This document shows, piece after piece, positions 15,445-40,250 of a stretch of DNA of 41,481 nucleotides. Positions within the stretch are counted from its first letter, which is position 1, and each line of letters starts with the position of its first letter. Made by a program: the position numbers and the translations under genes. The stretch comes from an uncultured archaeon (GTDB lineage: Archaea > Aenigmatarchaeota > Aenigmatarchaeia > CG10238-14 > CAZWBF01): positions 1 to 41,481 of the forward strand of contig CAZWBF010000003.1 of assembly GCA_964632185.1 (NCBI GenBank), read 5' to 3'. The notes beneath the pieces are model-generated. The model saw only the letters and a program-made list of their open reading frames with translations, was not told where the DNA came from and searched no databases.

Positions 15445-15469
15445 TATTTAAAAAGGTAAATAATAAAAT

Positions 15470-16042: not shown

Positions 16043-16079
16043 TTCTTGAAATTTAAATTTTAAAGTAAAATTTAAAAAT

Positions 16080-23916: not shown

Positions 23917-24996
23917 CTATTTTTTAGAACTTAAAATGTTTCTTATTTCTTCCATCTTAGGTAAATTCCATGGATTACATTTTGCACAATCTTCTTTTAG
24001 TCTATTTTCAAGAAAACTTCTTCTAATCTTATTAAAATACTCTCCAAACCAAATTTCCTTAAGAGATTTTTGCTTAACATTCTCTCCTTTATCCTTTAAT
24101 ATAAAACATGGCAAAGTATTCCCATCAGCAAAAATTGAAATATTATACCAAGGATAATAGCAAGCTATAGAAGTAAAATCATTTTTCTTTTTTACTTTTT
24201 CAGTCATTGCGACATTCATTATATTCGCTTTTTCAACATATAAGAAATTGAGAAAATCGTCAAAATTTGTTGATAAATTTAATTTCTTGGCTAATTCTTT
24301 TGCTTCTTTTAACTTGTTTTTTAATATTACTTTTTCTTTTTTATTTAATTGCAACTTTTTGATTTCTGGCTTCCAAATATTTAAAGCTTGCAAATTAATT
24401 CCTTGAATTTCTAATTTATAGGCCAATTTGATCATCGAAGTTAATTGGTCATAGTTTTTATTACAAATGACAGAATGAAAGAAAATTTCTGGTTTGTTTA
24501 TCTTTAATTTCTTTTTCCATTTTACTAAATTATTAACTCCCTTTATAATTTTGTCATAACAATTAGCACCTCTCAAAAAATTTTGAGTTTTTTTATTGGG
24601 AGAATCTAAACTAATATAAATTTTATCCCATTCAATTTCGACTATTTTTTTTGCTATCTTGTTCGAAAAAAAAGTTCCATTAGTTATTAATTCACCATAT
24701 TTTCCAGAAATTTTAATATATTCCATTATCTCAATAGCATCATTTATAAAGAATAATGGTTCTCCACCCCCACAAATATGCCATTCTTTAGTACCAAGTC
24801 TATTTCCTTCTTCAATAACTCTTAACCACTCTTCTTTTGTCAATTCTTGATTTCTATCAAGTTTTTTAATTAAAGCTCTAGTGGGACAAAAAAAGCATTT
24901 TAAGTTGCAAAAATTCGTTAAATGAATTTGAATTTGTGTAGGATATCCTTTCTTTTTTTCTTTCCATTTTTTTAAACTTTTAATTATCTCTTCCAT
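23917..24996 (-). CDS. radical SAM enzyme, family 1 paralog 14
   Basis: CNLKCFFC; ICGGGEP; ITNGTF; CYYPWYNISIFADGNTLPC...CAKC. Confidence 0.9.
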   Translation of the reverse strand: MEEIIKSLKKWKEKKKGYPTQIQIHLTNFCNLKCFFCPTRALIKKLDRNQELTKEEWLRVIEEGNRLGTKEWHICGGGEPLFFINDAIEIMEYIKISGKYGELITNGTFFSNKIAKKIVEIEWDKIYISLDSPNKKTQNFLRGANCYDKIIKGVNNLVKWKKKLKINKPEIFFHSVICNKNYDQLTSMIKLAYKLEIQGINLQALNIWKPEIKKLQLNKKEKVILKNKLKEAKELAKKLNLSTNFDDFLNFLYVEKANIMNVAMTEKVKKKNDFTSIACYYPWYNISIFADGNTLPCFILKDKGENVKQKSLKEIWFGEYFNKIRRSFLENRLKEDCAKCNPWNLPKMEEIRNILSSKK

Positions 24997-26135
24997 TTTT
25001 TCCCTTCTAAAAATTCTTTTAATTCTTTTCTAAATCTTCTTCTTTGCGTAAAATCACTCGGCACACATTTATGACAATGACTAAAAAGTTCTTTGTTAAG
25101 CATTTTCTTTCTTGCTTCTTGAAATAATTTTCCATACCAAATTTCTTTTAAACTTTTCTTCTTTACATTTTCGCCATTCTCTACATAGCCACAATACCCA
25201 GTTTTCCCATCATACCTTATAGCAATCCTCTCCCACGGTTTAAAACATGGTGCTGAAATCAATCCATCTTCCAAATCTTCTACTTCTTTCAGAAGTAAAG
25301 GTTTCATTTCACTTGTCTTTTTTACAATTTCATCTTCTAGATTTTTATCTTGAGTTGCAAAATTGTTATCTATTTCATATTTTTCTGCTAATCTCTTAGC
25401 TTTTTCAATAATCACATGTAGCTTCTTTATTTCTTCATTATTTAACTTTAATTCTTTTCCAACTTCTGAATAAACCATTAACGGTTCGGTAAAAATGTAA
25501 GCAGCATTTAAAGAATAAGAAAGCTTTACAATTTCTGGCAAATCACGAAAATTCAGTCTGTTTATACATACATTTATATTTAGCATCGGCCTTTCAGATT
25601 TCAATTTTTTCTTCCATTTATTTAAAATTTTTATATTTTCTATCGCTTTTTTAAAACTTCCTTTTGTTTGAGTTAAATAATCGTGGATTTCTGGTTTTGA
25701 AGAATGAATGCTAAAATGTATTCTATCCCAACTCATTTCAACTAAATTTTTAAGTTGTTTTTCATTCCAAAGAGTACCATTAGTAGTCACTATGCCATAT
25801 AACCCAACTTCTTTAACTTTTTCTATTATAGGGAAAAAAAGTTTTGGGACGGCAGGAGGCTCATTTATTCCTTCTATGTTAAAAATTAATGCATTAAGCT
25901 CTTTTGCTTCTTCAACTATTTCTAACCATTTTTCTGTTGACATTTCCTTTTCTTTAGATTTTCTATTTAAAACTTCATGCTCGTTATATCTAACACAAAA
26001 AATACATTTCAAATTACATCTTTTATGTAATTCGACATCTATCTGTATCGGACCTTCTTTTTTTCCTCGATGCCATGAAGCTAGTCTTCTTATGATTTCT
26101 TTATTAATTTTTTCTTCTCTATCAAAATTGAACAT
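24984..26135 (-). CDS. radical SAM enzyme, family 1 paralog 15 (divergent SAM-binding motif)
   Basis: CNLKCIFC; IEGINEP replaces GGGEP; TTNGTL; CFKPWERIAIRYDGKTGYC...CHKC. Confidence 0.88.
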   Translation of the reverse strand: MFNFDREEKINKEIIRRLASWHRGKKEGPIQIDVELHKRCNLKCIFCVRYNEHEVLNRKSKEKEMSTEKWLEIVEEAKELNALIFNIEGINEPPAVPKLFFPIIEKVKEVGLYGIVTTNGTLWNEKQLKNLVEMSWDRIHFSIHSSKPEIHDYLTQTKGSFKKAIENIKILNKWKKKLKSERPMLNINVCINRLNFRDLPEIVKLSYSLNAAYIFTEPLMVYSEVGKELKLNNEEIKKLHVIIEKAKRLAEKYEIDNNFATQDKNLEDEIVKKTSEMKPLLLKEVEDLEDGLISAPCFKPWERIAIRYDGKTGYCGYVENGENVKKKSLKEIWYGKLFQEARKKMLNKELFSHCHKCVPSDFTQRRRFRKELKEFLEGKKWKR

Positions 26136-26142
26136 GTTATTT

Positions 26143-26409
26143 CTAAATATATTTTCTTAAAAATTTCTTAAGCTTTCCTCCAACTTTAGTTTCTGCAATC
26201 CATCTTCCGACCCTATAACTTATTGAGTTATGGATATCTTCTAATTCTTTTTTGCATTCTTCTAATTCTTTTTCTCTCGCTGCTAATTGAAGTTTTAATA
26301 AATCACTTTCTTCTTTTACACTTTCAAGAAGTTGGTCGAGAAGCTTTAACATAGATCTACGGTTTTTATTTTTCTTAATTTTTGATATTAATTTTTCTAT
26401 TTCATCCAC
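26143..26409 (-). CDS. small coiled-coil protein, homologous to the C-terminal tail of paralog 7
   Basis: 88 aa, GTG start, overlapping the stop of paralog 16 by 8 nt in a different frame. Heptad-like Leu/Glu/Lys-rich sequence ending in ELEDIHNSISYRVGRW (compare EIEKFKNSLTYKVFSIFW in paralog 7). Confidence 0.6.
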   Translation of the reverse strand: MDEIEKLISKIKKNKNRRSMLKLLDQLLESVKEESDLLKLQLAAREKELEECKKELEDIHNSISYRVGRWIAETKVGGKLKKFLRKYI

Positions 26410-27562
26410 TTATCTCACCTGTTTTTAAATAAGTCTTAAGCCCCTCTCGAATTTTTCTATTATTGAAAACTTCCCAAACACAACATTTTTTGCAATTTTC
26501 TGGAAGTTTTCTTTTTAATATTATTTTTCTAAATTTATTAAAATAATTACCGTACCACAATTCCTTTAAGGAATGATTTTTTATTGAGATATTAGTATTC
26601 CATACCCAAGGACTAAAACAAGGAGCAATATTTCCATTTGGAAGAATTGTGACATGGATCCACGGAGCATAACATGGTAAAAATTCGAAATTAGTTATCG
26701 GATTTTTTGATCTAGGATATTCTTTTTTTATGAATTTCTCCATTTCTTCCATCATTACTTCATCCATTTTTTCAGTAAAATTGATATATTTTTCATTTAA
26801 AAACTCATTATAGTTAGTCTCTATACCAAACTTCTTAGCTAGTTCAATAGACTTTTTTAATATTGGTTTAAACTCCTCAACCTCTTTTTTTGTTAATTTT
26901 AAATTTTTCATTGATTCATCAAATACAGTTAGAGGCAATAATGTCATTCCATTAATTCCAATTTTATATGCTAATCTCACTAGTTCAGGAAATTTTTTAT
27001 AATTTTCTTTTGATAAAACAGATTGTAAAATTAGTTTTGGTTTATCCGTATTTAATTTTTTCTTTATTTTTGAAAAAAGTTTTATATTTTCAATGGTAGC
27101 CTTAAAAGCTCCTTTTGTTTGTCTCACATAGTCATGGGTCTTCTCATCAGGGCCATCTATACTAAATTTTATTCTATCCCACCCTATTCTTACCATAACT
27201 TCTATATCCTTTTTTGTGAACAAGGTCCCATTAGTCACTAAATCTCCTATCATGCCATATCTTTTCATTTTTTTAAAAAGTTCTATTGTTATTTTTCTTG
27301 CAAGTGGCTCTCCACCACCAACAAAAGCAATTTCTTTAACACCAATATTTGCTGCCTCATCAATTAACTTTAAAAGTCTTTTATCTGACATTTCCTGTTT
27401 ATACCTTCTTTCCAAATCTTCTTTTTTCCATCCCCTTCTCCAACAGCTAAGACAATTCAGATTACATCTATCTGTTGGTACCAATTCTATAGTGACTGGT
27501 GCTGCTTTTTCTCCTCTTGCCCACTTAACTAATCTTTCTATTCTAGCTCTAAACAATTCCAT
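26402..27562 (-). CDS. radical SAM enzyme, family 1 paralog 16
   Basis: CNLNCLSC; FVGGGEP; VTNGTL; CYAPWIHVTILPNGNIAPC...CKKCC. Confidence 0.9.
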   Translation of the reverse strand: MELFRARIERLVKWARGEKAAPVTIELVPTDRCNLNCLSCWRRGWKKEDLERRYKQEMSDKRLLKLIDEAANIGVKEIAFVGGGEPLARKITIELFKKMKRYGMIGDLVTNGTLFTKKDIEVMVRIGWDRIKFSIDGPDEKTHDYVRQTKGAFKATIENIKLFSKIKKKLNTDKPKLILQSVLSKENYKKFPELVRLAYKIGINGMTLLPLTVFDESMKNLKLTKKEVEEFKPILKKSIELAKKFGIETNYNEFLNEKYINFTEKMDEVMMEEMEKFIKKEYPRSKNPITNFEFLPCYAPWIHVTILPNGNIAPCFSPWVWNTNISIKNHSLKELWYGNYFNKFRKIILKRKLPENCKKCCVWEVFNNRKIREGLKTYLKTGEISG

Positions 27563-28739
27563 AGACTTTAGAAACCTCCTTAAAAATTTTTGGTTCCATA
27601 ATTTTTATTATATTCAATCTATATCTTCTTCTTTGACTAGTATGACTTGGGTTACATTGAGCACAAAAAGTAGGTATTTGCTTCGAAGACATTTTTGTTC
27701 TTAACCATTCAAAATATTTTCCAAACCAAACTTCTTTTAAAGATTTATTCCTAATATTATCTCCACCACTTACTGGAACGTCACATGAAGTTACCCGTCC
27801 ATCACATTTTATTGTCATATGAAACCAAGGTTTATAGCAAGGTACACTCAGAAATTTTTTAAGAAATTTATTTATCTTGATTTTTTCGATTTTTTTTATG
27901 TCAGATTTCACAACCTCATTCATTTTACTACTTTTTTCTATTAATTCTAACTGTAAATTATTTTCAATACCATCAAAATTATTGTTAATATTGAATTTTC
28001 TAGCAAGGGTTCTTGCCTTTTCTAAATATTTAGGAAACTCTTTTATTTCACTTTTACCTAACTTTAGTTTTTTTCCTATTTCTGAATAAACAATTAATGG
28101 GTCGACAAATAAAAACTCTATTTTGTATTTCTTTGCAAGCATAACCATCTTTGGAAGAAGATTATAATTTTTCTTTGAAAGAACCATATTTATGTTTAAT
28201 GTTGGCTTATCTGTTTTATACTTTCTTTTCAATTCATTAAACTTTCTTATAGTGTTTATAACTTTTTTAAATGCTCCTTTTACCCCTCTCAAATAATCAT
28301 GAATCTTTGCGTTTGGCCCATCTATACTAAAATGTATCCTATCCCATCCAATTTTAACAACAGTCTCTATATGCTCTTTTCTCCAGAGTGTACCATTAGT
28401 TGTTATTATTCCAAGCATATCATAGCTTTTTATTTTTTTCATTACAGGAATCGTGTATTGAGGTAAAAACATTGGTTCTCCTCCACCAGCTATGTGCCAT
28501 TCTCTTACATCCATTTCAGCAGCTTCTTCAATTATTTTAAGCCATTTTTCTAATGGCATTTCCAGGTATTTCGAAATCTCATTTAATCTCTCATAATCTG
28601 GAGATGCTCTTCTTGAACAAGAAAGGCATTTGAGATTACATCTTCTATGTAATTCTATATCAATTTTAAATGGATTTTGCTTCTTTCCTTTAAACCAATT
28701 CAAAATTCTTTTATACATTTCATATTCATGTGAATCCAT
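27549..28739 (-). CDS. radical SAM enzyme, family 1 paralog 17
   Basis: CNLKCLSC; AAEMDVREWHIAGGGEP; TTNGTL; CYKPWFHMTIKCDGRVTSC...CAQC. Confidence 0.9.
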   Translation of the reverse strand: MDSHEYEMYKRILNWFKGKKQNPFKIDIELHRRCNLKCLSCSRRASPDYERLNEISKYLEMPLEKWLKIIEEAAEMDVREWHIAGGGEPMFLPQYTIPVMKKIKSYDMLGIITTNGTLWRKEHIETVVKIGWDRIHFSIDGPNAKIHDYLRGVKGAFKKVINTIRKFNELKRKYKTDKPTLNINMVLSKKNYNLLPKMVMLAKKYKIEFLFVDPLIVYSEIGKKLKLGKSEIKEFPKYLEKARTLARKFNINNNFDGIENNLQLELIEKSSKMNEVVKSDIKKIEKIKINKFLKKFLSVPCYKPWFHMTIKCDGRVTSCDVPVSGGDNIRNKSLKEVWFGKYFEWLRTKMSSKQIPTFCAQCNPSHTSQRRRYRLNIIKIMEPKIFKEVSKVYGIV

Positions 28740-29848
28740 TATTTTCTCCTCAAAAATTCTATTAACTTTTCTCTTGTTTTTAATGTTTCAACTAATATAC
28801 CACTTGCACATTTAGAACAAAAACTCGCAAGCTTCCAATTAACCATCTCTTTTCTAAACTTTTCTAAATATCCATTGTACCATATTTCTCTTAGCGAATT
28901 TTCGAAGATAGAATTACATAAGTCTTCATTATCACAAAGCCTACAAGGAGTTACTTTTCCGCTCACTCTTATCTCCATTCCTAACCAAGGATAAAAGCAT
29001 GGGACATTGAGAAATCCTCCTCCCCTTTTCATTTTCTTCATTATTTTTGTCATATCTTTTTTTTCTACAAGAGCTTCGTTTAACCACCAATTAAGATTTG
29101 TTGGAACATTAAGTTTTCTTGAAATCATCAATGCTTTCTTAATTTCTTTTTTCAATTTTGGAATTTCAGATTTTTTTATTTTAATTTTTTCAGTCTCTTT
29201 ATTCCAGACTATTAAAGGCTCGAAATTAACCCCTTCACATCCTACATTTTTCCCAAAAATTACCATTTCGCTAAGTTTAGAAAAATTAACATTAGTCAAT
29301 ACGGCGTGAATTGAATATTTTGGTTTTGATGTTTTATAAACTTTTTTCCAATAATTCAATAGTTCCAAGTTCTTTTTGACTTTTTTGAATGCACCTCTAC
29401 TACCAACCAAATAATCATGAACCTTTGCATTTGGTCCCTCAACAGAAAAAAGAATTTGGTCCCAACCAATTTCAACAATTTTTTTGATCATCTTCGGTGT
29501 AAGTAAAGTACCGTTTGTGGTTACACAGCCATACATATTCAATTCTTTTATCATTCTCATCATTTTCATAACAGTTTTAGGCTTAACAAATGGCTCCCAT
29601 CCGCCAGCTATTTGCCATTCTCTTACATCCATTTCAGCAGCTTCTTCAATTATACGAAAAAGTGTTTTTGAATCTAAAGTTTTTTTATAATTACATGCCT
29701 TAACTCTATTTGCATCTCTTGTCCAGCAAAATTTACATCTCAAGTTACAGCCCGAAGTCGGTTCTATATCAATTTTATAAGGTGGAGCACTTCCATATTT
29801 ATACCACTTATACAATCTTACGATTCTTTCATCTACCATAAATTTCAC
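28739..29848 (-). CDS. radical SAM enzyme, family 1 paralog 18 (GGWEP variant)
   Basis: CNLRCKFC; AAEMDVREWQIAGGWEP; TTNGTL; CFYPWLGMEIRVSGKVTPC...CSKC. Confidence 0.9.
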   Translation of the reverse strand: MKFMVDERIVRLYKWYKYGSAPPYKIDIEPTSGCNLRCKFCWTRDANRVKACNYKKTLDSKTLFRIIEEAAEMDVREWQIAGGWEPFVKPKTVMKMMRMIKELNMYGCVTTNGTLLTPKMIKKIVEIGWDQILFSVEGPNAKVHDYLVGSRGAFKKVKKNLELLNYWKKVYKTSKPKYSIHAVLTNVNFSKLSEMVIFGKNVGCEGVNFEPLIVWNKETEKIKIKKSEIPKLKKEIKKALMISRKLNVPTNLNWWLNEALVEKKDMTKIMKKMKRGGGFLNVPCFYPWLGMEIRVSGKVTPCRLCDNEDLCNSIFENSLREIWYNGYLEKFRKEMVNWKLASFCSKCASGILVETLKTREKLIEFLRRK

Positions 29849-30896
29849 TTCTTAAAATTCCTCTTATTCTTTCATTTTCCAAAAATATTGGTACACAACA
29901 ATTTTTACAGAATTTAAACATTTCCCCCTTTTTTAAAGAATTCCTATATTTCTCAAACTCTTTATACCAAATCTCTTTCAATTTCATAACTTTTACATTC
30001 AATTCACTACTTCCAAAAACAGCACAAGGACCAACTTCTCCATAAGGATTTATTACGATATTGTAAAATGGTTCGTAGCATGGTATTTTCAAAAAATCTT
30101 TATTTGTTTTAAATATTTTTTTCCAAAGTTTCTGGAGGTCTTTTGCTTTGATAGACTGTTTTTTCAGTAAAATTTTAGCATTGGTGAAAATATTTAAGTT
30201 ATTTGCTTTTAACAAAGCCTTTCTAAGATTTCTTTTTACTAAATTTTCTTTGGGTAATAATTTTTTGCCTTCATCTGAGAATATGGTAATTGGTTGAAAA
30301 AGAACTTCAGAAAACCCTAAAGAAGACCCAAGTTCTATCATTTTCTCCAACACTTCAACATTTTTATTTGTTATAACTGTGTTCATCCTTAAGCGGGGGG
30401 AATCTTTTCCATATTTTTCTTTCATAATATTTATCTTTTCGATTCCTTTTAATGTTTTTTCAAAGGCACCATCAACTCCACGTATAAAATCATGTGTATT
30501 CTTGTCTGGACCATCTATACTTATTGTAAGTATGTCCCATTCAAATTTAACAAGTGTTCTAGCAACTTTTTCATCTATTAGAGTTCCGTTTGAAATTAAC
30601 AAACCTTTCCTCTTATTTTTTTTAATTACTTTAATAATTGAAAGAAGTAATTCTTTTCTAATAAATGGTTCTCCACTTCCAGGTATTCTAAATTCTTCTA
30701 TTCCTAGTTTGCAAGCTTCTTTTATCACTCTAATCCAAGTTTTGTCTTCTATTTCCTTTTTATTACTCGAAAAATTCCTTAACCAACACATTTTACATTT
30801 CAAATTACATCTATTTGTTATATTCATTTCTATTGTGTAAGGTGCTGGTTTTTCTGTTTTGGCCCATTTTAAAATCCTCTCTATTTTCTCTTCCAT
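29829..30896 (-). CDS. radical SAM enzyme, family 1 paralog 19
   Basis: MEEKIERILKWAKTEK; CNLKCKMC; IPGSGEP; ISNGTL; CYEPFYNIVINPYGEVGPC...CKNCC. Confidence 0.9.
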   Translation of the reverse strand: MEEKIERILKWAKTEKPAPYTIEMNITNRCNLKCKMCWLRNFSSNKKEIEDKTWIRVIKEACKLGIEEFRIPGSGEPFIRKELLLSIIKVIKKNKRKGLLISNGTLIDEKVARTLVKFEWDILTISIDGPDKNTHDFIRGVDGAFEKTLKGIEKINIMKEKYGKDSPRLRMNTVITNKNVEVLEKMIELGSSLGFSEVLFQPITIFSDEGKKLLPKENLVKRNLRKALLKANNLNIFTNAKILLKKQSIKAKDLQKLWKKIFKTNKDFLKIPCYEPFYNIVINPYGEVGPCAVFGSSELNVKVMKLKEIWYKEFEKYRNSLKKGEMFKFCKNCCVPIFLENERIRGILRSEIYGR

Positions 30897-31963
30897 TATA
30901 ATCCCATCAGCATTTTTCTTAAAGTCCTATTCTCCATTAAAACGACTATACTACATTTGTCACAATAATAAGGAGGGTTTTTTTCTAACATTTTCTTTCT
31001 TAATTTATTAAATAATTTTCCATACCAAACTTCTTTTAAACTTTTATTTTGGATAAATTCTCCTATTTCAAAAGTTGAACAACAACCAGAGAATCCAGAT
31101 GCTTTAATTCCCATTAAATACCAAGGCCTAAAACAAGAAGCCCCAAGAAACCCATTTATCTTTTCAACTTCTTTTAAAAATTTTTTTCTTAGGTTTGTCT
31201 TATCCATTAGTTGAATCTCCAAAAAATCTCTTATATTAGTATCAATTTTAAGTTTTTTTGCAACTCTTTCTCCTTTTCTTACAATTTTTTTAAGTCCTCT
31301 CTTATCTTTTTTTGGTATTTTTAAATCTATCTTAGAATAACCTGGATAGATTGGCTCAAAAAATACTAAATCACTTCCAACTTCATAAGCTAATTCTATC
31401 ATTTCTGGTATAAGTTTATAATTCATTTTATTAATAACCGTATTAAACCCGATATATGGCTTTGATGATTTGCTTTTTTCTCTCAATTCTCTTAAAATGC
31501 TAACATTTTTTGTTATTCTTTTAAAAGAATTTGGGGGGCGAAGAAAGTCATTGATTTTTTCATTAGGCCCATCTATGCTAAATTGAACTTGGTCCCAACC
31601 TATCTTAATTAAAAATTTAGCATCGCTTTCGTTCAATAAAGTACCATTTGTTGTGAGCAATCCCCACATTCCAAACTTTTTAATTTCTTTTAGAATTTTT
31701 AGAGTTGTACTTTTTCTTACAAGTGGCTCTCCACCACCAGAAACTATCCATTCTCTTACATCCATTTCAGCGGCTTCTTTCACTATCTTTAGTAGTCTTT
31801 TTTCTGATAATTCTCTTTTTGTTGGTTTTCGATTCCCCTTTCTCCAACAAAAAATACAATTGAGATTACAGGAGTCTGTTGGATGTAGTTCTATCCTTAC
31901 AGGTCCTACTTTACCCCCATCACTCCAAATTTTCAATCTTTTAGCTATTTCTTCAAGTTCCAT
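30896..31963 (-). CDS. radical SAM enzyme, family 1 paralog 20
   Basis: CNLNCIFC; AAEMDVREWIVSGGGEP; TTNGTL; CFRPWYLMGIKASGFSGCC...CDKC. Confidence 0.9.
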   Translation of the reverse strand: MELEEIAKRLKIWSDGGKVGPVRIELHPTDSCNLNCIFCWRKGNRKPTKRELSEKRLLKIVKEAAEMDVREWIVSGGGEPLVRKSTTLKILKEIKKFGMWGLLTTNGTLLNESDAKFLIKIGWDQVQFSIDGPNEKINDFLRPPNSFKRITKNVSILRELREKSKSSKPYIGFNTVINKMNYKLIPEMIELAYEVGSDLVFFEPIYPGYSKIDLKIPKKDKRGLKKIVRKGERVAKKLKIDTNIRDFLEIQLMDKTNLRKKFLKEVEKINGFLGASCFRPWYLMGIKASGFSGCCSTFEIGEFIQNKSLKEVWYGKLFNKLRKKMLEKNPPYYCDKCSIVVLMENRTLRKMLMGL

Positions 31964-32964: not shown

Positions 32965-34041
32965 CTAAACACCATGAAAGAAAATTTTTAACAATTCAGT
33001 TATACTAAATCTTTGATAACAAAGCATCATACAAGGCATCTTACAATTTTTTATCAGATATCTTGTCCTTTTGAACTCTTCACTTTTCCATATCTTCGAA
33101 AGGTTTTTTCCAATTACATTTATATTTGGACCATAATTACAAATGCTAATATTTCCATAGGGGTCTATATTAAGATTAAAATAACCTGCCATGCATTTTC
33201 CCAAATTAAATTTTTCTTTCATTTCAAAGTATTTGGGGATTGCTTTAAGATAATAAACAGAATTGTATATAAAATTAGTATCTTTTCTTTTCAGTACAAC
33301 TAATTCATCTATAATTTTTTTCAACTCTTCTAAATCTTCCTTTTTTACCCAAAGAGGTGAATTATAATCAAATTTTTTAAAAGTGTTATCTAATACGAGA
33401 GATTGGAGAAACCATTGATCTATCCCTATTTTTTTGCCTAGCCAATAAATATCGACTAATTCTCTAAAATTATAAGACATGACAACTGTTGAAAAATCAA
33501 TTTTTAATTCATACCGATTTTTAAATTTTTTCAAAATTTTTGCTGCTTTTATTACTTGATTAAAGTTGCCTTTACCTCGTATGAAATCATGTGTTTCTTT
33601 TTTAGCTCCATCTAGAGATAGAGCGATTCTCTTTAATCCAGCTTCAAGCAATTTTTTACAAACTTTTTTGTTTAAAAGAGTTGCATTTGAAACAATGTTT
33701 GTATAAAAACCAAGAGAATTTGCATATTTAATTAATTCTAATGTATCATTCAACCTCAAAAGAGATTCTCCCCCCACGAAGGATACATATTTAGTATTTT
33801 TCCAGCTTTTTACTTCATTTAAGATTCTTTTCATTTCATTTACGCTTATCTCCTTTCCTTTCTTTGTTAATTTCCAAATATTGCACATTTTGCATTGTAA
33901 TGTACATCTATTTGTCATTTGAAAGTTGATCTCTTTTGGGTAAATTAATGGATAGTTAAGTAAATACGAAAAATAGTATTTGAAATAAGTTTTTGCATTT
34001 TCTAATTTTTTTCTTAAATCCATCCTCTCACTTCTAGCCAA
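32965..34041 (-). CDS. radical SAM enzyme, family 2 paralog (CxxxCxxCNIWK type) with C-terminal auxiliary Cys module
   Basis: NYPLIYPKEINFQMTNRCTLQCKMCNIWK; FVGGESL; VSNATL; LSLDGAKKETHDFIRGKG; CMAGYFNLNIDPYGNISIC...CKMPCMMLC. Confidence 0.9.
   Translation of the reverse strand: MARSERMDLRKKLENAKTYFKYYFSYLLNYPLIYPKEINFQMTNRCTLQCKMCNIWKLTKKGKEISVNEMKRILNEVKSWKNTKYVSFVGGESLLRLNDTLELIKYANSLGFYTNIVSNATLLNKKVCKKLLEAGLKRIALSLDGAKKETHDFIRGKGNFNQVIKAAKILKKFKNRYELKIDFSTVVMSYNFRELVDIYWLGKKIGIDQWFLQSLVLDNTFKKFDYNSPLWVKKEDLEELKKIIDELVVLKRKDTNFIYNSVYYLKAIPKYFEMKEKFNLGKCMAGYFNLNIDPYGNISICNYGPNINVIGKNLSKIWKSEEFKRTRYLIKNCKMPCMMLCYQRFSITELLKIFFHGV
33455..33628. repeat. identical-sequence tracts shared with 34525..34704 (copy A, inside family-2 paralog 32965..34041)
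   Basis: 33455..33495 equals 34525..34565 (41 nt) and 33523..33628 equals 34599..34704 (106 nt), checked base by base. The ~27-33 nt between the two tracts differ. Confidence 0.9.
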
Positions 34042-35117
34042 GCTTCTAAAAGTTCTTTAAAATTAAGTTTTTCATAACAAAGCATTAAACAAGGTTTTTT
34101 ACATTTTTTAATCAAAATTCTTGTCATCTTATATTTTTTACTTTTCCATATCTTTCTCAAACTCTCATTCTTAACATTTAAATTCGGTCCAAGACCACAA
34201 ATGTTAATATTTCCATATGGGTCTATGTTGATATAGCTATATCCAACGATGCATTTTCCAGTCTTAAATTTTTCTTTTTCTTTAAAATATTTGGGTAAAG
34301 ATAATAAATACCTTCTAGTATTTCTTATTTGTCCTGTAATTTTTTTCAATAAAACTAATTTTAAAACTATTTTTTCAAGTTCAGGAATATCTTCTTCTTT
34401 TATCCAGATATCGCTTTCATACGATTTTAAAATTTCTGATTTCCATGTAAATGTATTATCAAGAACAACTGCTTGGTAATTAATAAAATCGAAACCAATC
34501 TTTCTCATTAAATTAAAGATGTCAACTAATTCTCTAAAATTATAAGACATGACAACTGTTGAAAATTCCAATTCTACTTTTTTATTAAGTTTTCTTCGAA
34601 ATTTTTTCAAAATTTTTGCTGCTTTTATTACTTGATTAAAGTTGCCTTTACCTCGTATGAAATCATGTGTTTCTTTTTTAGCTCCATCTAGAGATAGAGC
34701 GATTTTCGAAACATTTGACTCTAAAAGTTTTTTACATAAAGATTTGTTAAGATAAACTCCATTTGTAATAAGATCTACTCTCATATTAGGTTTGTTAGAG
34801 GCATATTTTATAAGCTCTATTACATCTTTAGCTCTTACTAAGGTTTCTCCACCTGCAAAAGAGATATGATCAATACCCCATTCATAAATTTCATCAATAA
34901 GCTTCTTCAATTCTTCTAAAGAAAGTTCTTTATTTACTTCCACTTTCTTTTTCCAGACATTGCACATTATACACCTAAGTGGGCACCTATGTGTGATATC
35001 GAAATTTACTCTCCAAGGCTTACTTAAGGGATAGTTTAAATTATAGGATAACCAATTGAAGGAGTAATCTATTAAAAATTTAAAAATTCCTTCATAGATA
35101 CTCTTCAACTCCATCAC
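34014..35117 (-). CDS. radical SAM enzyme, family 2 paralog
   Basis: NYPLSKPWRVNFDITHRCPLRCIMCNVWK; FAGGETL; ITNGVY; LSLDGAKKETHDFIRGKG; CIVGYSYINIDPYGNINIC...CKKPCLMLC. Confidence 0.9.
   Translation of the reverse strand: MMELKSIYEGIFKFLIDYSFNWLSYNLNYPLSKPWRVNFDITHRCPLRCIMCNVWKKKVEVNKELSLEELKKLIDEIYEWGIDHISFAGGETLVRAKDVIELIKYASNKPNMRVDLITNGVYLNKSLCKKLLESNVSKIALSLDGAKKETHDFIRGKGNFNQVIKAAKILKKFRRKLNKKVELEFSTVVMSYNFRELVDIFNLMRKIGFDFINYQAVVLDNTFTWKSEILKSYESDIWIKEEDIPELEKIVLKLVLLKKITGQIRNTRRYLLSLPKYFKEKEKFKTGKCIVGYSYINIDPYGNINICGLGPNLNVKNESLRKIWKSKKYKMTRILIKKCKKPCLMLCYEKLNFKELLEAWLEVRGWI
34525..34704. repeat. identical-sequence tracts shared with 33455..33628 (copy B, inside family-2 paralog 34014..35117)
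   Basis: Same comparison as copy A. The tracts encode STVVMSYNFRELVDI and LSLDGAKKETHDFIRGKGNFNQVIKAAKILKKF in both proteins. Confidence 0.9.
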
Positions 35118-36145
35118 CTAATTCCAATTTTAATTCTTGGAAAACAAAGCATTAAACAGGGTTTTTTACACCTAAATATTTTTAGTCTTGTTTTTTCAAA
35201 TCTCAGACTATACCATATACTTTTTATCGAATACTCTCTCACATTTAAAGAAGGCCCTTTGCCACAAACATCCACTTCACCATTGGGTTTTATATACATA
35301 TAACTATATCCTGCCATACAGATCCCCTCTCTAAATTTTTCTTTTTTTTCAAAATATTCTGGCATCATTTTTAACATGAAAAGTGGAGTACCTATAATTC
35401 TCTTTTCCCTTTTTATTTTAATCAATTCTTCACATATTTTTCTTAATTTTGAAATGTTTTTCTTTTTGACCCAAAATTCATCGTCTTCATATCTTTTATT
35501 CTTTGTATAAGAAGTATCCAGATTATATGGGTTAAATGAAACCTCATATAATTCTAACTTTTCAACAAGCTCTACAATATCCAGTAATTCATCAATATTT
35601 TTATCATTAACCACAGTAGTTAACGATAATTTTAAATCAGAATTAAATTTTTCTTTTGCTCTTTTTATTTTTTTAATCGAATTCATCACTTTTTTATAAC
35701 ATCCTTTTCCCCTTATATAATCGTTTGTTTTTTCTGTTGCTCCATCAAGAGAAAATTGTAAGTAATCTAACCCAGATAAAACCAAATCTTCAGCAATAGT
35801 TTTATTCACAAGTAAACCATTAGATGTTACATGAGTTATTAAATTCCATTTTTTTGCTAATTTAATACATTCTATAAGATCATCTTTTCTTAGTAATGGT
35901 TCTCCACCTGCAAAACTAACATTTATACCTCCCCATCTTCCAATTTGATTTATAACATTTTTAAGCTCTTCAAGATTCAATTCATTCTCTTCCTTTAATC
36001 CATATTTCCATGTCTCACAAATTTTACATCTTAGATTACATTTATGTGTTAAGCCAAAGTTTATAAAAAGTGGTTTTGTAAAAGGAAAAAAAGTAAGATA
36101 GGAAATAATAAATTTCCATTTTTGAAATTTTGTGAGTTCTTCCAT
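35114..36145 (-). CDS. radical SAM enzyme, family 2 paralog
   Basis: FINFGLTHKCNLRCKICETWK; FAGGEPL; TSNGLL; SLDGATEKTNDYIRGKG; CMAGYSYMYIKPNGEVDVC...CKKPCLMLC. Confidence 0.9.
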   Translation of the reverse strand: MEELTKFQKWKFIISYLTFFPFTKPLFINFGLTHKCNLRCKICETWKYGLKEENELNLEELKNVINQIGRWGGINVSFAGGEPLLRKDDLIECIKLAKKWNLITHVTSNGLLVNKTIAEDLVLSGLDYLQFSLDGATEKTNDYIRGKGCYKKVMNSIKKIKRAKEKFNSDLKLSLTTVVNDKNIDELLDIVELVEKLELYEVSFNPYNLDTSYTKNKRYEDDEFWVKKKNISKLRKICEELIKIKREKRIIGTPLFMLKMMPEYFEKKEKFREGICMAGYSYMYIKPNGEVDVCGKGPSLNVREYSIKSIWYSLRFEKTRLKIFRCKKPCLMLCFPRIKIGIR

Positions 36146-37035
36146 TATTTTTCACCTTTTATCAACTCTAAAAAACCAATTCCTCTGCCTATCTTTTGAT
36201 ATTTATTTATTTTTTCTTTCAAATCTTCTATAATTAGCAATCTAAAAATTTCTTCAAAAACTTTTTCTTTAAGTAAAAAGTTATGAATTTCTATTTTTGA
36301 AATTTCCATTATTCTTTTCATATTTTCTTCTCTCCTCTTAGCTAATACATCACTATATCCTTGCCAAAAAGCTCTTTCTAAGAAAAACTCTTTTGTAAGT
36401 TTCTCTGGAAAAACTCTATGCCAAATTAGAGCCTTGGGGTCGTAAATAATTTTAAATCCTTTTTTTAAAATCCTTTCTTGAATTTCTATATCTTCATTAC
36501 ATAAAGGTTCTGTTAATGTTCTTCCTATCTTTTCATCAAAGTAACCAACTTTATCAAATATTTCTTTTCTGAAACAAATGTTAGAACCCCACAACAAAGG
36601 TTTTTTTAATTCCATTTTTTTATTTCCTAGAATTGTCGCACCAAGAAAGCCTTTAAAAATATTGCGTGGTATATTATCTAATTCTTTTGGAACTTTACCC
36701 TCAAACATCAAATTTATTTTACCCCCAACACAAACTATTTTATCATCAACAAAATTCTTAATAAGATTTTTTATCCAAAATTTATCGGCTATCGCATCAT
36801 CATCTATAAAACAAACAAATTCTCCTTTGCTATTTTGTATACCCAAATTTCTTTGATAAGAAACATTTGCTTTAGAAGAATACACAAATTTTACTCCATC
36901 AATTTTGTTTTTTATGGAGATATCACAACTAACAACTACAATTTCAAAATCTTCAAATTTTTGATTTTTGAGGGATTCTATACAATCAAAAATTGTTTCT
37001 CTGCCAATTGTACATACAATAATTGAAACTTTCAT
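36145..37035 (-). CDS. GT2-family (GT-A fold) glycosyltransferase
   Basis: MKVSIIVCTIGRE...FEIVVVS...CFIDDDAI (DxD). 296 aa. Its stop shares 1 nt with the downstream rSAM start. Confidence 0.88.
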   Translation of the reverse strand: MKVSIIVCTIGRETIFDCIESLKNQKFEDFEIVVVSCDISIKNKIDGVKFVYSSKANVSYQRNLGIQNSKGEFVCFIDDDAIADKFWIKNLIKNFVDDKIVCVGGKINLMFEGKVPKELDNIPRNIFKGFLGATILGNKKMELKKPLLWGSNICFRKEIFDKVGYFDEKIGRTLTEPLCNEDIEIQERILKKGFKIIYDPKALIWHRVFPEKLTKEFFLERAFWQGYSDVLAKRREENMKRIMEISKIEIHNFLLKEKVFEEIFRLLIIEDLKEKINKYQKIGRGIGFLELIKGEK

Positions 37036-38030
37036 TTACTTCCCTTTTTAATTCTTTTCAACATTCTTATCTCTTCTTCTTTTTCTTCAATTTTTATTCC
37101 CATCTCTACTACAAGTTTTTGAAGTTCATTTTTATACTTCTCTTCTATATTTTTTCTTTCTATTTCCTTTTTTTTCAGTTCATTTTCAAATTCTTTCCTT
37201 AATTTCTGAAATTCTTTATCTTTTTTTCTTAGTTCATTTTCAAATTCCTTTCTTATTTTTTGAAGTTCTCCTTCTTTCCTATTAAATTCCTCTTTTAATC
37301 TTTCAATATCTTTTAAGAGTTTTACTATTTCCTTTTTGTATCCTTTTGAAATTTCCTTTATCCTCTTCTTATGTTTTTTCCATATATCATTTATTTCCTT
37401 GTCTCTTTGATTTCTTAATTTTTTTAATTTATCTAATAATTTTAGATTTTCACTTTTTGCCTCCTTTAATTCTCCTTTTATCCTTTCCAAATCTTCTTTT
37501 TCTCTTTTAATTCTCTCTAATTCTGCTTTCATTTCTTCTTTTTCTCTTTTAATTCTCTCTAATTCTGCTTTTAGATATTCAACTATACTTAAGGTCAATA
37601 AAAATGAAGAAAAGGGCTTTGTTTTAACATTTATTGGTTTTTCTTTTTTCGGTATTATTAGAGCAACTTCAGGAAGGTCGAAATTTGCAACCAAAATATT
37701 TTGTGAAATTTTTTTCAAATCTTCTATTTTATTATTAACATCTGTTTTAAATTCTTTCTCACTTAACATTTTTTCAACTGTGGAATCGGCCTCTTCAATA
37801 ATTTGTTGAAGTGGAAGAATTATCCACAATCTATCTGATAGATTATACAACCTTTTAATTTCTTCTATATCCAACGAATTTAGACTTTCAATTATTATAT
37901 TTTTATATTTCTTTTTGTGCAACTCTACTTCATCTAGTTTTATCGTTGGTATTCCTTCTTCTTTTTTTCCAATAAAAATAAACTCTTCATTTCCTATAAC
38001 TTTTAAAATTTTTTTTATTATTTCTTTCAT
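37032..38030 (-). CDS. coiled-coil protein with internal tandem repeats and an N-terminal ~150-aa domain of unknown function
   Basis: The C-terminal ~180 aa are almost pure E/K/R/L heptad-like sequence. They contain the repeats KAELERIKREKEE(M/D) x2 and (I/L)RKEFENEL(R/K)KK x2. ATGA-type overlaps link it to both neighbours. Confidence 0.8.
   Translation of the reverse strand: MKEIIKKILKVIGNEEFIFIGKKEEGIPTIKLDEVELHKKKYKNIIIESLNSLDIEEIKRLYNLSDRLWIILPLQQIIEEADSTVEKMLSEKEFKTDVNNKIEDLKKISQNILVANFDLPEVALIIPKKEKPINVKTKPFSSFLLTLSIVEYLKAELERIKREKEEMKAELERIKREKEDLERIKGELKEAKSENLKLLDKLKKLRNQRDKEINDIWKKHKKRIKEISKGYKKEIVKLLKDIERLKEEFNRKEGELQKIRKEFENELRKKDKEFQKLRKEFENELKKKEIERKNIEEKYKNELQKLVVEMGIKIEEKEEEIRMLKRIKKGSK
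37492..37571. repeat. 42-nt in-frame tandem duplication inside the coiled-coil gene
   Basis: 37492..37529 is identical to 37534..37571 (38 nt, period 42 nt = 14 codons). It encodes KAELERIKREKEE twice. Confidence 0.9.
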
Positions 38031-39406
38031 TTAATCCCCATCGCTTTTTTTCCTAAATCAGTTCTCACTAAAATATCATAAAAATATTTGGTTGCAAATT
38101 CTAACCAAATTCTTTTTTTAAATTCGTTTACGACATTTTCGTTATTACTTGAAGTGATTAATTCCCCCTTTTCAAACAAGCAAAGTTGCTTATTCATTTT
38201 ATCTAAATCTTTGTAAACAAAAATTGTTTTTCCTTCTTTGAATTTATCAAATTCTTTTTTACCATCTTCTCCAGAAACAATTGTTAAATCATAAAAAGGA
38301 TTGTTTTTTCCAGGCAACATAAACAACTTATTTTCATTACTTTCTTTAAAATATTTTACAACTACTTTAAAAGGACTTTTATTCAACAATTTATCATCAC
38401 ATTTGACCCAAACATCATACTGCCCTTCTTCAATTGGCAAAGAGTTTGTACTAAAAATTACATTATTTTTAACAATCTTATTTGAAAATACCCTCACAAT
38501 TGAATTTCCTGTAAACAACAGTTCATTAATTTTCCCTACATCTTTAGTTTTTATTGTTATTCTACATTTTCCTCCGGTCTTCAAAATGAAAGGATAGGCA
38601 CCAACAACATTAAATTTAATATTATTCTCCTTTTCAACAATTCTATTCAATCTTTTCAATCTTTTACTTTCCATCATTTCGTCGTATTTTTCACAAACTT
38701 TTTCAGAAGGTCCTAAAGAAATTATTCTTCCTCTTTTAAGAATTAAAGCTCTATCGCAAAATTTTTTTATATCAGTTGATGAATGCATAACCAAAACAAT
38801 AGTTTTTCCTTCTTCTTTTATTCTTCTTATCATTTCTAAACATTTTGTCTGAAAATCTGCATCACCAACACTTAAAAGTTCATCGATAAGTATTATGTCC
38901 GCATCTGTATGGAAAGCTATAGAAAAAGATAATCTCATTATCATTCCGTCAGAAAAATCTCTAAGTTTTACGTCCATCATATTTTTAAGTTCTGCAAACT
39001 TTACTATTTGGTCATATTTCTCTTCTATTTCTTTTTTCTTCATCCCTAAAATTGAGCCGTAAATATATACATTTTCTTTTGCTGTCAATTCTTTTTTAAA
39101 ACCTATTCCAAGACTAAGAATTGGAAGTATTTTTCCATTCGTTATTACATCCCCCTTATCAGGTTGAATTATCCCTGCAATTACTTTGAGAAGTGTTGTT
39201 TTACCAGAACCGTTTTCTCCTAAAATTCCAAAACATTCTCCACTTTTTATTGACAAATTTATGTTCTTTAATGCAATGATTTTTTCATTTTTCCTTTTCT
39301 TTCTCAAATTTTTACTGAAATTTATAAACCTTTCTTTAAGTGTTAACTCTTTTTTTCTTTCTAAATTGAATTCCTTACACACGTTTTCTAATTTTATAGC
39401 TATCAT
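38027..39406 (-). CDS. ABC transporter ATP-binding protein, Wzt/TagH-like, with a ~200-aa C-terminal extension
   Basis: Walker A GENGSGKTT; signature-like FSDGMIMRLSF; Walker B IILIDE; H-loop VLVMHS. Residues ~250-459 form an extra, apparently beta-rich domain. Confidence 0.9.
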   Translation of the reverse strand: MIAIKLENVCKEFNLERKKELTLKERFINFSKNLRKKRKNEKIIALKNINLSIKSGECFGILGENGSGKTTLLKVIAGIIQPDKGDVITNGKILPILSLGIGFKKELTAKENVYIYGSILGMKKKEIEEKYDQIVKFAELKNMMDVKLRDFSDGMIMRLSFSIAFHTDADIILIDELLSVGDADFQTKCLEMIRRIKEEGKTIVLVMHSSTDIKKFCDRALILKRGRIISLGPSEKVCEKYDEMMESKRLKRLNRIVEKENNIKFNVVGAYPFILKTGGKCRITIKTKDVGKINELLFTGNSIVRVFSNKIVKNNVIFSTNSLPIEEGQYDVWVKCDDKLLNKSPFKVVVKYFKESNENKLFMLPGKNNPFYDLTIVSGEDGKKEFDKFKEGKTIFVYKDLDKMNKQLCLFEKGELITSSNNENVVNEFKKRIWLEFATKYFYDILVRTDLGKKAMGIK

Positions 39407-40197
39407 TATATCAACTCTCTGACAATTCTTTTTTCTTTTTTAAATTTTTTATAACCTATTATACAAAGAACAAAGGAAAATAATAGAAGAATTATTAAAC
39501 CTTTAACTATCGATATATGCTCAATAAATTTTGGTGACGAATAAAGAAGAATTCCCTGATACAAATAAATTAAAATTGTGATAGGATTAAGCATATAAAC
39601 TCCTCTGTAAAGAGATGGTATATCTTCAATTCTATAAACGATTGGAGTAAGAAACAAAAGAATTTCAAAAATTATTGTAAGAATGTAATTCAAATCTCTC
39701 ATTTGGAGATAAAGAACAGAAAAATATAAACCAAAACCAATGATTATTAAAAAACTTATGAAAATTATGATTGGTAATAAAAGAATGTAAATTGAAAATG
39801 AAACAAAAAAGCTTATGAGTAGAAGAATTATACTTAACTCGATAAAAAAAGAGAGTGTTGTTGAAATGGCTTTAACTAGAATAATAGTTTCAAGGTTTAT
39901 ATCAGATTTTACAAGAATGTGAGAATAGTCTGTGAAACATCTTGTTAATTCTAATATTCCTTTTCTTAGATATCTATAGGGTATTAGGCCACAAACAAAA
40001 AATAAAAACCAATCCACAAAATTTACTTTGAGAATTAGAGGAAAAATGACCGAATACGAAATAATTAATATCAGAGGTTCTATTAATGACCATAATAAGC
40101 CCAGATAAGAACCAGCATATCTTATTTTAAAGTCAACAATCGCCAGCGTCCAAACTTTATCCTTTATTTCTATAACTTTTTTTAGAAGTTTTTTCAT
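39406..40197 (-). CDS. ABC-2 type (Wzm/TagG-like) polysaccharide exporter permease
   Basis: 263 aa with ~6 TM helices. The N-terminal VDFKIRYAGSYLGLLWSLIEPL is typical of ABC-2 permeases. Its stop shares 1 nt with the ATPase start. Confidence 0.85.
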   Translation of the reverse strand: MKKLLKKVIEIKDKVWTLAIVDFKIRYAGSYLGLLWSLIEPLILIISYSVIFPLILKVNFVDWFLFFVCGLIPYRYLRKGILELTRCFTDYSHILVKSDINLETIILVKAISTTLSFFIELSIILLLISFFVSFSIYILLLPIIIFISFLIIIGFGLYFSVLYLQMRDLNYILTIIFEILLFLTPIVYRIEDIPSLYRGVYMLNPITILIYLYQGILLYSSPKFIEHISIVKGLIILLLFSFVLCIIGYKKFKKEKRIVRELI

Positions 40198-40250
40198 AAG
40201 GAAATTTATAATTTAAAATAATAAATTTCTAGATTCATTAACAAACAATT
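40198..40250. promoter_or_regulatory. divergent intergenic region, putative promoter of the ~16 kb exporter-GT-rSAM operon and of the AP-family gene
   Basis: 53 nt with TTTAAAATAATAAAT / TTTAAATTATAAAT boxes about 14-35 nt from the two ATGs. No Shine-Dalgarno motif. Confidence 0.3.

Follow-up and report, generated by a model that had tools for sequence, protein, structure and literature searches.

In ATP-binding cassette (ABC)-dependent O-antigen and teichoic-acid pathways, the polymer is completed in the cytoplasm before export by an ABC-2 permease and its ATPase, as represented by Wzm/Wzt of Aquifex aeolicus, the Escherichia coli O9a system and TarGH. The gene order in E. coli O9a is wzm-wzt-wbdD-wbdA. 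Radical S-adenosylmethionine (rSAM) enzymes acting on sugars have so far been known as single steps of antibiotic pathways. Those of the twitch/rSAM type with oligosaccharide-type substrates that are cited in PMC10991966 include BtrN, NeoN, HygY and the avilamycin epimerase. Here, we analyze a 41,481-nt stretch of DNA from an uncultured archaeon of the Aenigmatarchaeota (GenBank assembly GCA_964632185.1, contig CAZWBF010000003.1, positions 1 to 41,481), hereafter the window. It has a GC content of 25–30% throughout and contains 25 rSAM genes, of which 24 are complete and the 25th is cut by the left end. Eleven of these genes lie in a 16-gene minus-strand unit that runs from 40197 to 23917 in the six-frame list of open reading frames (ORFs) and starts with a Wzm/Wzt-type exporter. 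The best explanation is that this part of an Aenigmatarchaeota genome is a glycan locus for the cell surface, conserved among relatives, in which many anciently diverged rSAM enzymes with one auxiliary cluster each would be expressed along with a glycan pathway that depends on an ABC transporter. Our literature search found no description of such an rSAM/Wzm-Wzt locus, nor any precedent for eleven rSAM genes in the same unit as a Wzm/Wzt exporter. Xanthomonas papers that name both Wzt and radical SAM were considered and set aside as irrelevant to the locus.

The genes of the unit are ordered as Wzm permease, Wzt ATPase, coiled-coil protein, family 2 glycosyltransferase (GT2), three family-2 rSAM enzymes, six family-1 rSAM enzymes, an 88-aa protein and two more family-1 rSAM enzymes. 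The order permease, ATPase, coiled coil and glycosyltransferase recalls that of E. coli O9a. An earlier reading of the DNA from its letters and ORF list (the sequence-only reading) had proposed that 16 minus-strand ORFs with these identities follow one another without a break. Both proposals were borne out, the continuity by the ORF list and a computation of the junctions, the identities by Pfam matches to ABC2_membrane, ABC_tran, Glycos_transf_2, and Radical_SAM with SPASM; the coiled-coil protein matches no family. The junctions comprise 13 overlaps of 1–28 nt, one abutting pair (32964/32965) and one gap of 7 nt (26136–26142). Counted from the permease, the series consists of overlaps of 1, 4, 4, 1, 4 and 28 nt, the abutting pair, overlaps of 19, 1, 20, 1, 14 and 8 nt, the 7-nt gap and an overlap of 13 nt. 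Hence each junction is a stop/start overlap or a gap of at most 7 nt, an operon-like spacing. The overlap with the upstream stop persisted when GTG and TTG starts were replaced by the nearest downstream in-frame ATG, and purine-rich GGAGG- or GGTG-like motifs were found just 5' of several junctions. From the spacing we infer that the unit is co-transcribed and translationally coupled. The 53-nt AT-rich divergent intergenic region at 40198–40250, which contains TTTATAAT and TTTAAAAT, is presumed to serve as a bidirectional promoter. A scan with bacterial promoter and terminator consensus sequences, which say little about an archaeal host, showed no enrichment (78 versus 85.8 ± 9.1 promoter-like sites and 6 versus 4.3 ± 2.6 terminator-like sites). 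At the distal end, the unit meets a plus-strand rSAM unit, the two stops (23907 and 23917) being 9 nt apart, and there is therefore almost no room for separate terminators.

The closest relatives of the encoded proteins are found in metagenome-assembled genomes of Candidatus Aenigmatarchaeota, which belong to the DPANN archaea, and over its right-hand part the window is identical to one JGI contig (L012). The metagenomes were searched with a single protein as the query. All related contigs that are long enough to display the unit have its genes in the same order (L004, L006, L007, L008, L013, L014, L015, L017, L019, L020 and L021; n = 11), at protein identities between 40%, for Wzt in L021, and 79%. 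The conserved order reads: a divergent gene of the alkaline phosphatase (AP) family, Wzm, Wzt, coiled-coil protein, GT2, three family-2 rSAM genes, family-1 rSAM genes, the small ORF and the last family-1 rSAM genes. In all sufficiently long relatives, Wzm-Wzt-coiled coil-GT2 directly precedes the rSAM genes, so the co-occurrence of rSAM genes with exporter and glycosyltransferase genes, which the sequence-only reading had suggested as a check, was positive. The relatives L007, L008 and L021 are likewise compact, with gaps of at most 46 nt. Overlap is not special by itself, since same-strand genes overlap across the whole window in this compact genome; it is the recurrence of one gene order in 11 independent related contigs that goes beyond chance. 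One-to-one orthologs of family-1 rSAM proteins are 45–79% identical, as compared to 24–46% between paralogs, and the orthologs of family 2 are 54–76% identical. Thus, the rSAM duplications are old and each copy has been retained.

The link is not confined to a single arrangement, as five further contexts again join rSAM genes of this family and glycan-type genes. In L009, a Wzt paralog (39% identical) is followed directly by orthologs of the rSAM genes in the window. L010 carries four rSAM orthologs (69–73% identical), a small membrane protein, a pair of family 4 glycosyltransferases (GT4; 55–56% identical) and a GT-C glycosyltransferase, in a block that mirrors the left block of the window, along with a beta-helix protein, a B12-rSAM and an Asn-synthase-like gene. 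In L011, the rSAM genes are interleaved with three PMT-type GT-Cs, SGNH/GDSL proteins, a polysaccharide deacetylase and B12-rSAMs, and in L025 six rSAM genes precede a GT4, a Sulfatase-family protein and a PMT_2 GT-C. The fifth context is shared by L002 and L001. On L002, a contig of 769 kb, a gene for a DegT/DnrJ/EryC1-type aminotransferase (6016–7218, minus strand) lies on the opposite strand midway in the orthologous rSAM run, and L001 has a GH113-like gene immediately after the unit. The aminotransferase within the array recalls the pairing of BtrN with an aminotransferase in butirosin biosynthesis. The genes divergent from wzm in the relatives encode an AP-family protein, a 531-aa protein with multiple transmembrane segments and a PMT_2 GT-C.

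These arrangements bear on the alternative that the rSAM array has nothing to do with the exporter but, for example, matures a cofactor or metallocluster, modifies nucleotides or provides viperin-like defence, and lies next to surface-glycan genes only through genome compactness. Overlapping genes are indeed the rule in the window, the top NCBIfam matches are cofactor enzymes (tungsten-cofactor maturase, MoaA, AhbD and NirJ), and all 24 complete rSAM proteins match the pVip models of PADLOC. However, the cofactor and pVip matches cover only the generic core and are far below the cutoffs. A role as a defence island was rejected, as PADLOC returned generic viperin-core (pVip) matches only. Moreover, the adjacency to Wzm, Wzt and GT2 is kept down to 40% identity, several glycan-gene arrangements are independent of each other, and 25 paralogs are hard to square with a single cofactor pathway. 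We therefore regard an unrelated function as very improbable.

The exporter is of the Wzm/Wzt/TagGH type, that is, of the glycan or teichoic-acid type as judged by its sequence relatives. The first gene of the unit (39406–40197, minus strand) encodes a Wzm-type ABC-2 permease with about 6–7 hydrophobic segments, which matches Pfam ABC2_membrane above the cutoff and has TarG, A. aeolicus Wzm and KpsM as its best PDB sequence matches. It overlaps by 1 nt with the gene for the ATPase (38027–39406, minus strand), which places a homolog of Wzm, TarG and KpsM next to a nucleotide-binding domain (NBD) of the Wzt/TagH clade. The ATPase has a Pfam ABC_tran match followed by about 200 further residues. 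Its best PDB match is A. aeolicus Wzt (E = 7e-61), followed by TagH/TarH and the mycobacterial Wzt, and most of its homologs, 42–50% identical over the NBD, carry Pfam Wzt_C. The nearest NCBIfam models to the exporter are TagH and the galactan Wzt/Wzm, below their equivalog cutoffs. In the AlphaFold2 (AF2) model of the ATPase (pLDDT 86), the NBD is followed by a long helix, a beta-sandwich at about residues 264–363 and a small alpha/beta C-terminal subdomain. The top Foldseek matches of the model are full-length Wzt structures (7k2t, 8dne and 8dku) with 390–416 aligned columns, as compared to about 240 for entries with the NBD only. In the model, a domain thus fills the place of the carbohydrate-binding domain of Wzt, although Pfam does not recognise it, and the predicted beta-sandwich is at this position. 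Among Wzt proteins, a carbohydrate-binding domain of this kind is restricted to the cap-dependent subclass. In having an ABC-2 permease, a Wzt-type NBD and a predicted beta-sandwich after it, the exporter resembles those of A. aeolicus, E. coli O9a and TarGH, whereas the absence of a Pfam Wzt_C match and the extra alpha/beta subdomain set its ATPase apart from these systems.

The third gene (37032–38030, minus strand) encodes a soluble protein of 332 aa, composed of an N-terminal domain of about 130 aa and a long coiled coil. It matches no Pfam family at the cutoff, coiled-coil-type matches being sub-threshold only, and no relative of its N-terminal domain was found in PDB. The protein evolves fast and varies in length, with orthologs that are 34–48% identical and 204–377 aa aligned or long. 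Two tandem 54-nt units (37158–37265), 81% identical, are present in the gene, which fits the length variation among the relatives. As a further difference from these export systems, the protein contains no kinase, methyltransferase or Kdo-transferase terminator domain. The fourth gene (36145–37035, minus strand) encodes a soluble GT2 (Pfam Glycos_transf_2, 59 bits) in which no transmembrane segment is predicted. Its best NCBIfam match is AglG, a glucosyl-dolichyl phosphate glucuronosyltransferase, with 135 bits against a cutoff of 440. The AglG-near GT2, the GT4s, a lipid-linked logic and transfer by an extracytoplasmic GT-C are shared with archaeal Agl N-glycosylation, whereas the GT-C in the window is PMT_2-like and not of the AglB/STT3 type, and export is by Wzm/Wzt. 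The term radical SAM is absent from the text of a 2024 review on archaeal N-glycosylation.

All 24 complete rSAM genes encode the cluster motif CX3CX2C at residues 18–54, the PF04055 scores are 59–97 bits against a cutoff of 29.5, and the Glu of the GGGEP motif is invariant in the rSAM proteins of the window. Pairwise clustering confirmed the proposed division into two families. The three family-2 genes (35114–36145, 34014–35117 and 32965–34041, minus strand) encode proteins that are 39–54% identical to each other and 22–33% identical to other rSAM proteins. Family 1 has 21 members across the window, with 24–46% identity between paralogs. Eight of these are in the unit, namely a run of six (31945–32964, 30896–31963, 29829–30896, 28739–29848, 27549–28739 and 26402–27562, minus strand), with CX3CX2C at residues 27–34, and the last two (24984–26135 and 23917–24996, minus strand). 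Pfam was sampled on three ORFs (35114–36145, 31945–32964 and 23917–24996, the ORFs being 340–396 aa long), giving Radical_SAM and SPASM matches, and NCBIfam models of the rSAM/SPASM type are matched by all 11 rSAM proteins in the unit. Alignment positions that are constant inside an orthogroup but vary from paralog to paralog are located mainly in the predicted barrel strands and the twitch hairpin. Since this is where the substrate pockets of rSAM enzymes lie, the paralogs may differ in their specificities. Two adjacent family-2 paralogs share a 109-nt stretch with 99% identity (33523–33631 and 34599–34707), the remainder being about 75% identical at the DNA level; it looks like a recent local gene-conversion tract.

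In family 1, the C-terminal cysteines are arranged as C-x17/18-C, about 40 residues, and C-x2-C, where C279, C297 and C337 are invariant and C340 is conserved in at least 90%. Family 2 has five, arranged as C-x17-C-x31-C-x3-C-x3-C. The seven-cysteine SPASM pattern (CX9-15GX4C ... CX2CX5CX3C ... C) is absent from family 1, and the Pfam SPASM model is nevertheless matched above its cutoff because it also covers twitch domains. With only four C-terminal cysteines, family 1 should therefore have a twitch domain with one auxiliary cluster in place of a complete SPASM domain. In a search against all PDB sequences, the C-terminal 83 aa of the protein encoded at 23917–24996 aligned to residues 169–252 of BtrN (E = 0.005), matching the four cysteines and the IW..F..R motif. 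The BtrN twitch was the sole meaningful PDB sequence match of the isolated family-1 C-terminal domain; BtrN is an aminocyclitol dehydrogenase and thus of the carbohydrate type. The auxiliary site (C-x18-C ... C-x2-C) aligns with that of BtrN residue for residue, the W/F/R motif included, although family 1 is less than 20% identical to BtrN overall, and its proteins have 340–396 aa and an extra helical segment, as compared to about 250–270 aa in BtrN. Thus, family 1 consists of BtrN-like twitch rSAM proteins, to judge from these sequence features, with one predicted auxiliary cluster. Other differences from the aminoglycoside and oligosaccharide antibiotic enzymes are the number of genes, with 21 paralogs in one locus versus one enzyme per pathway, and the setting, which is a putative operon for polymer export and not an antibiotic cluster.

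By sequence and fold, peptide relatives and sugar or nucleotide relatives are equally near, and neither class of substrate is favoured. In Foldseek, the AF2 model of the protein encoded at 23917–24996 (pLDDT 95) is about equally close to SuiB, SkfB, PqqE, BlsE, MoaA, viperin, DesII and the anaerobic sulfatase-maturating enzyme (anSME), with TM-scores of 0.55–0.68. The best scores from PDB profiles and folds were obtained for SkfB (E = 7e-28) and SuiB (Foldseek E = 4e-15, TM-score 0.64–0.66). The maturases of ribosomally synthesized and post-translationally modified peptides (RiPPs) with SPASM domains, together with anSME, represent the same superfamily branch and give the best scores. These matches, which also include PqqE, CteB and anSME, speak for an alternative in which the rSAM enzymes mature peptides or proteins without a RiPP recognition element (RRE), like anSME and QhpD, and cross-link or epimerise a cytoplasmic protein; the ABC-2 transporter would export the product or be separate. 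QhpD and QhpC, with an ABC exporter, are a precedent for a protein substrate. The substrate might then be the 88-aa or the coiled-coil protein, or else a surface protein encoded elsewhere, such as an S-layer protein or a pilin.

Several features set the locus apart from the RiPP systems. One is the lack of an RRE, which is shared with BtrN, HygY, NeoN and the avilamycin epimerases. With the cluster motif starting at residues 18–54, only 17–53 residues lie ahead of it, leaving no room for an N-terminal RRE. The motif had been placed at about residue 30 or earlier in the sequence-only reading; the actual range is wider (27–46 in the unit and 18–54 in the window), but the conclusion about the RRE holds. 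No PqqD-like RRE and no peptidase were matched among the window proteins scanned with Pfam, and there is accordingly neither a PqqD-like gene nor a leader peptidase to go with a peptide substrate. No conserved precursor-like gene was found near the rSAM genes. Family 1 is devoid of the CX2CX5CX3C second-cluster motif and of the seven-cysteine SPASM pattern typical of thioether-forming maturases. The transporter is Wzm/Wzt/TagGH-like and not a peptide exporter, and all five of the different arrangements described above include glycan genes. A role as anSME, which likewise has no RRE, was rejected: neither the AP-family protein at 40251–41480 nor the Sulfatase-family protein in L025 has the C/S-x-P-x-R motif for formylglycine, their sites looking like the Thr type and thus not those of anSME clients, and the SPASM domain is incomplete. 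The L025 protein (12435–13853, plus strand) has a lipobox-like N-terminus and HTTLSK at the site of the sulfatase motif, which suggests a phosphotransferase with a Thr nucleophile (LtaS/EptA-like) and not a sulfatase.

Two small proteins could still be taken as substrates. The 88-aa protein (26143–26409, minus strand) is conserved and forms a coiled coil that ends in a basic amphipathic stretch (SISYRVGRWIAETxIGGxLKKxLRKY). Its fixed position inside the rSAM run, seen also in L001, L002, L004, L006, L009, L017–L019 and L021, and its restriction to the clade, with only 7 representative relatives of 72–135 aa among 1.84 billion proteins, would suit a peptide substrate. However, this protein, the product of the sole conserved small ORF, is a Cys-free coiled coil and resembles a tail fused to an rSAM protein. 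This 468-aa rSAM protein (14038–15444, plus strand), with orthologs of 465–470 aa in L001 and L002, ends in a segment (residues about 400–468, ending in NSLTYKV) that aligns weakly with the 88-aa protein (36% identity over 53 aa). The likeness suggests a module and not a substrate, and we read the 88-aa protein as a putative tether or scaffold module. The idea that its motif occurs elsewhere as a C-terminal module of glycosyltransferases found no support apart from the weak match to the 468-aa rSAM tail, since the exhaustive search gave the seven small clade-specific proteins only. The other candidate is a 190-aa protein (15470–16042, plus strand), which is N-terminally anchored and has 12 cysteines with a period of about 28 residues (C-x10/11-C-x16). 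It is co-oriented with four rSAM genes, which speaks for a substrate, but its only homolog occurs in a sister strain, where the gene order is the same. As a general substrate it was rejected for this reason. The earlier statement that no space is left for short genes is correct inside the unit and does not apply elsewhere in the window, where an 84-aa ORF in a gap of 242 nt and the 190-aa gene are located. Taken together, a peptide or protein substrate appears unlikely to us.

Lipids form another class of conceivable targets, and the wording of the sequence-only reading, a glycan "or its carrier", allows for them. The rSAM enzymes would then act like Tes, GrsA/B or Gms and alter either the polyprenyl carrier or archaeal membrane lipids obtained by scavenging, and the exporter and glycosyltransferases would handle lipids or glycolipids. 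The Wzt NBD resembles ABCA lipid transporters too, DPANN archaea are discussed in the literature on lipid modification by rSAM enzymes, and a generic similarity to Tes was recorded in 23 of the 24 proteins (NCBIfam NF045702; PDB 7tol), as was a weak HpnH match for the rSAM protein at the left end. Yet these Tes and HpnH matches are far weaker than those to PqqE, NirJ and AhbD, with 40–65 bits against cutoffs of 225–450. For Tes, individual scores were 40.8–58.4 bits against a cutoff of 450, and the best E-value among the 24 proteins was 1.1e-19. The rSAM proteins are predicted to be soluble with no membrane-binding segment, and the neighbours are GT2, GT4, GT-C and glycoside hydrolase (GH) genes, with no isoprenoid or lipid genes. 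To our knowledge, rSAM enzymes acting on lipids do so singly or in pairs and not by the dozen. A lipid target is accordingly quite unlikely.

Divergent from the permease and running off the window is the gene for the AP-superfamily protein (40251–41480, plus strand), which has one N-terminal transmembrane segment and a weak Phosphodiest match; it is kept at this position in L004, L006, L007, L014, L017, L019 and L020. Three family-1 rSAM genes (20633–23907, plus strand) converge on the unit, and their orthologs in L001 and L002, 44–75% identical, are at an equivalent relative position. They are followed by an aldo/keto reductase gene (19514–20575, minus strand; Pfam Aldo_ket_red) with a ferredoxin-like Fe-S tail (CxxCxxCxxC...CP). 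Orthologs of this gene, with Fer4_17/Fer4_9 matches, form part of the rSAM arrays in L001, L002 and L023, and the protein may act as a redox partner or reduce keto sugars. Next come an rSAM gene recognized from the ORF list and motif (18204–19463, minus strand) and a plus-strand block (14038–18202) composed of the genes for the 468-aa rSAM protein and the Cys-rich protein and two more rSAM genes. Six family-1 genes follow at 7232–8302, 8287–9378, 11750–12850 and 12843–13955 on the minus strand and 9476–10636 and 10626–11732 on the plus strand. Four of them have orthologs in L010 (69–73% identical), in the same order and beside the equivalent GT4 pair.

Between rSAM and GT4 genes, in the only sizeable intergenic gap (242 nt), is an ORF for a protein of 84 aa with two transmembrane segments (6977–7231, plus strand). 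Since L010 has a counterpart of 71 aa at the equivalent place (70% identical over 73 aa), this is probably a real small membrane protein. The left flank had been read as GT4, GT4, GH-A-like, GT-C, DUF362 and rSAM on the same strand, and Pfam agreed. The two GT4 genes (5782–6990 and 4643–5785, minus strand) match Glyco_transf_4/Glyco_trans_1_4, and the GH113 match of the anchored GH-A-like protein (3657–4646, minus strand) and the PMT_2 match of the GT-C (2106–3647, minus strand), which has multiple transmembrane segments, are weak. The DUF362 protein (1077–2018, minus strand) scores 149 bits. The 25th rSAM gene (2–1033, minus strand), which runs off the window end, is of a third type with a Radical_SAM match; its best NCBIfam matches are PTO1314, MoaA and HpnH, all below the cutoff. 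A plus-strand ORF of 147 aa (456–899), antisense within this gene and matching no family, is probably spurious.

Based on these results, we propose that the rSAM enzymes tailor a lipid-linked surface glycan by radical chemistry in the cytoplasm before it is exported by the ABC transporter, with substrate and chemistry suggested by the context. The AglG-like GT2 and the GT4s would begin and extend the glycan on the cytoplasmic side, with polyprenyl phosphate, presumably dolichyl phosphate in an archaeal host, as the carrier. Each rSAM enzyme would use a 5'-deoxyadenosyl radical to remove hydrogen at one specific C-H position of the sugar, be it lipid-linked or activated in another way, and the electron would be handled by the auxiliary cluster as in BtrN. 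The outcomes may be keto sugars formed by oxidation, epimerisation, deoxygenation, or C-C and C-O cross-links. Partner enzymes would finish some of the conversions, in sequences of oxidation, epimerisation or amination, such as the Fe-S aldo/keto reductase in the window and, in the relatives, the DegT-type aminotransferase, class-B rSAMs and the Asn-synthase-like amidotransferase. The coiled-coil protein and the 88-aa protein may serve the enzymes as scaffolds or membrane tethers. The C-terminal beta-sandwich of Wzt would recognise the finished polymer, to be exported by Wzm/Wzt, and outside the cell the GT-C, the GH-A-like protein and the Thr-type AP-family enzymes would transfer and trim it. 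No transmembrane or signal segment is predicted in the rSAM proteins, the GT2 or the coiled-coil proteins, in contrast to the anchored or membrane-embedded GT-C, GH and AP proteins. This fits tailoring in the cytoplasm before export.

We give this proposal a probability of roughly one half. The sequence-only reading, which placed the enzymes on a glycan or its carrier, is supported in part, by the co-occurrence, the glycan-type exporter and the lack of an RRE, PqqD-like gene or peptidase; with regard to a ribosomal peptide as the substrate, peptide maturases are equally near. A number of results weigh against the proposal. The evidence on the substrate is contextual and none is direct, and the need of a glycan for 11–25 distinct radical enzymes has no explanation. 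The peptide maturases SkfB, PqqE, SuiB and CteB score as high as or higher than the sugar and nucleotide enzymes in sequence and fold, and a conserved 88-aa protein is located mid-run among the rSAM genes. No NCBIfam model is reached at its cutoff by any rSAM protein in the window, the best scores being 105–113 bits against cutoffs of at least 380. The Pfam Wzt_C domain was undetected in the ATPase tail, which gave a weak Filamin match only, and nucleotide-sugar pathway genes are absent from the window. Finally, tight packing is general among same-strand neighbours in the window, so that coupling is not specific to the unit. As a bolder and more tentative extension, to which we give somewhat less than even odds, two dozen substrate-specific twitch rSAM enzymes might act on a lipid-linked surface polysaccharide once it is assembled, cross-linking it or making it more diverse. 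Such a radical route to glycan diversity, by epimerisation, oxidation/amination, deoxygenation, and C-C or ether cross-links, would replace the nucleotide-sugar tailoring pathways absent from these reduced genomes. This would represent the first use of rSAM enzymes at the polymer level in a Wzm/Wzt pathway.

The locus itself is real, conserved and unusual, and we infer its function from context. Should the substrate be a protein instead, the locus would constitute an unusual RRE-independent multi-enzyme maturation system. At least 20 related enzymes, presumably with differing regio- and stereo-specificity, would be a resource for enzymology and glyco-engineering. The source is a tiny, symbiotic-type archaeon, and the block occupies a few percent of a genome of about 1 Mb; it is therefore probably important to the organism. 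While rSAM enzymes acting on sugars have been single steps of antibiotic pathways, a block of 11–25 of them tied to an exporter would point to unexplored chemistry of the archaeal envelope, and could explain how genome-reduced DPANN archaea come by distinctive surfaces with which to attach to hosts.

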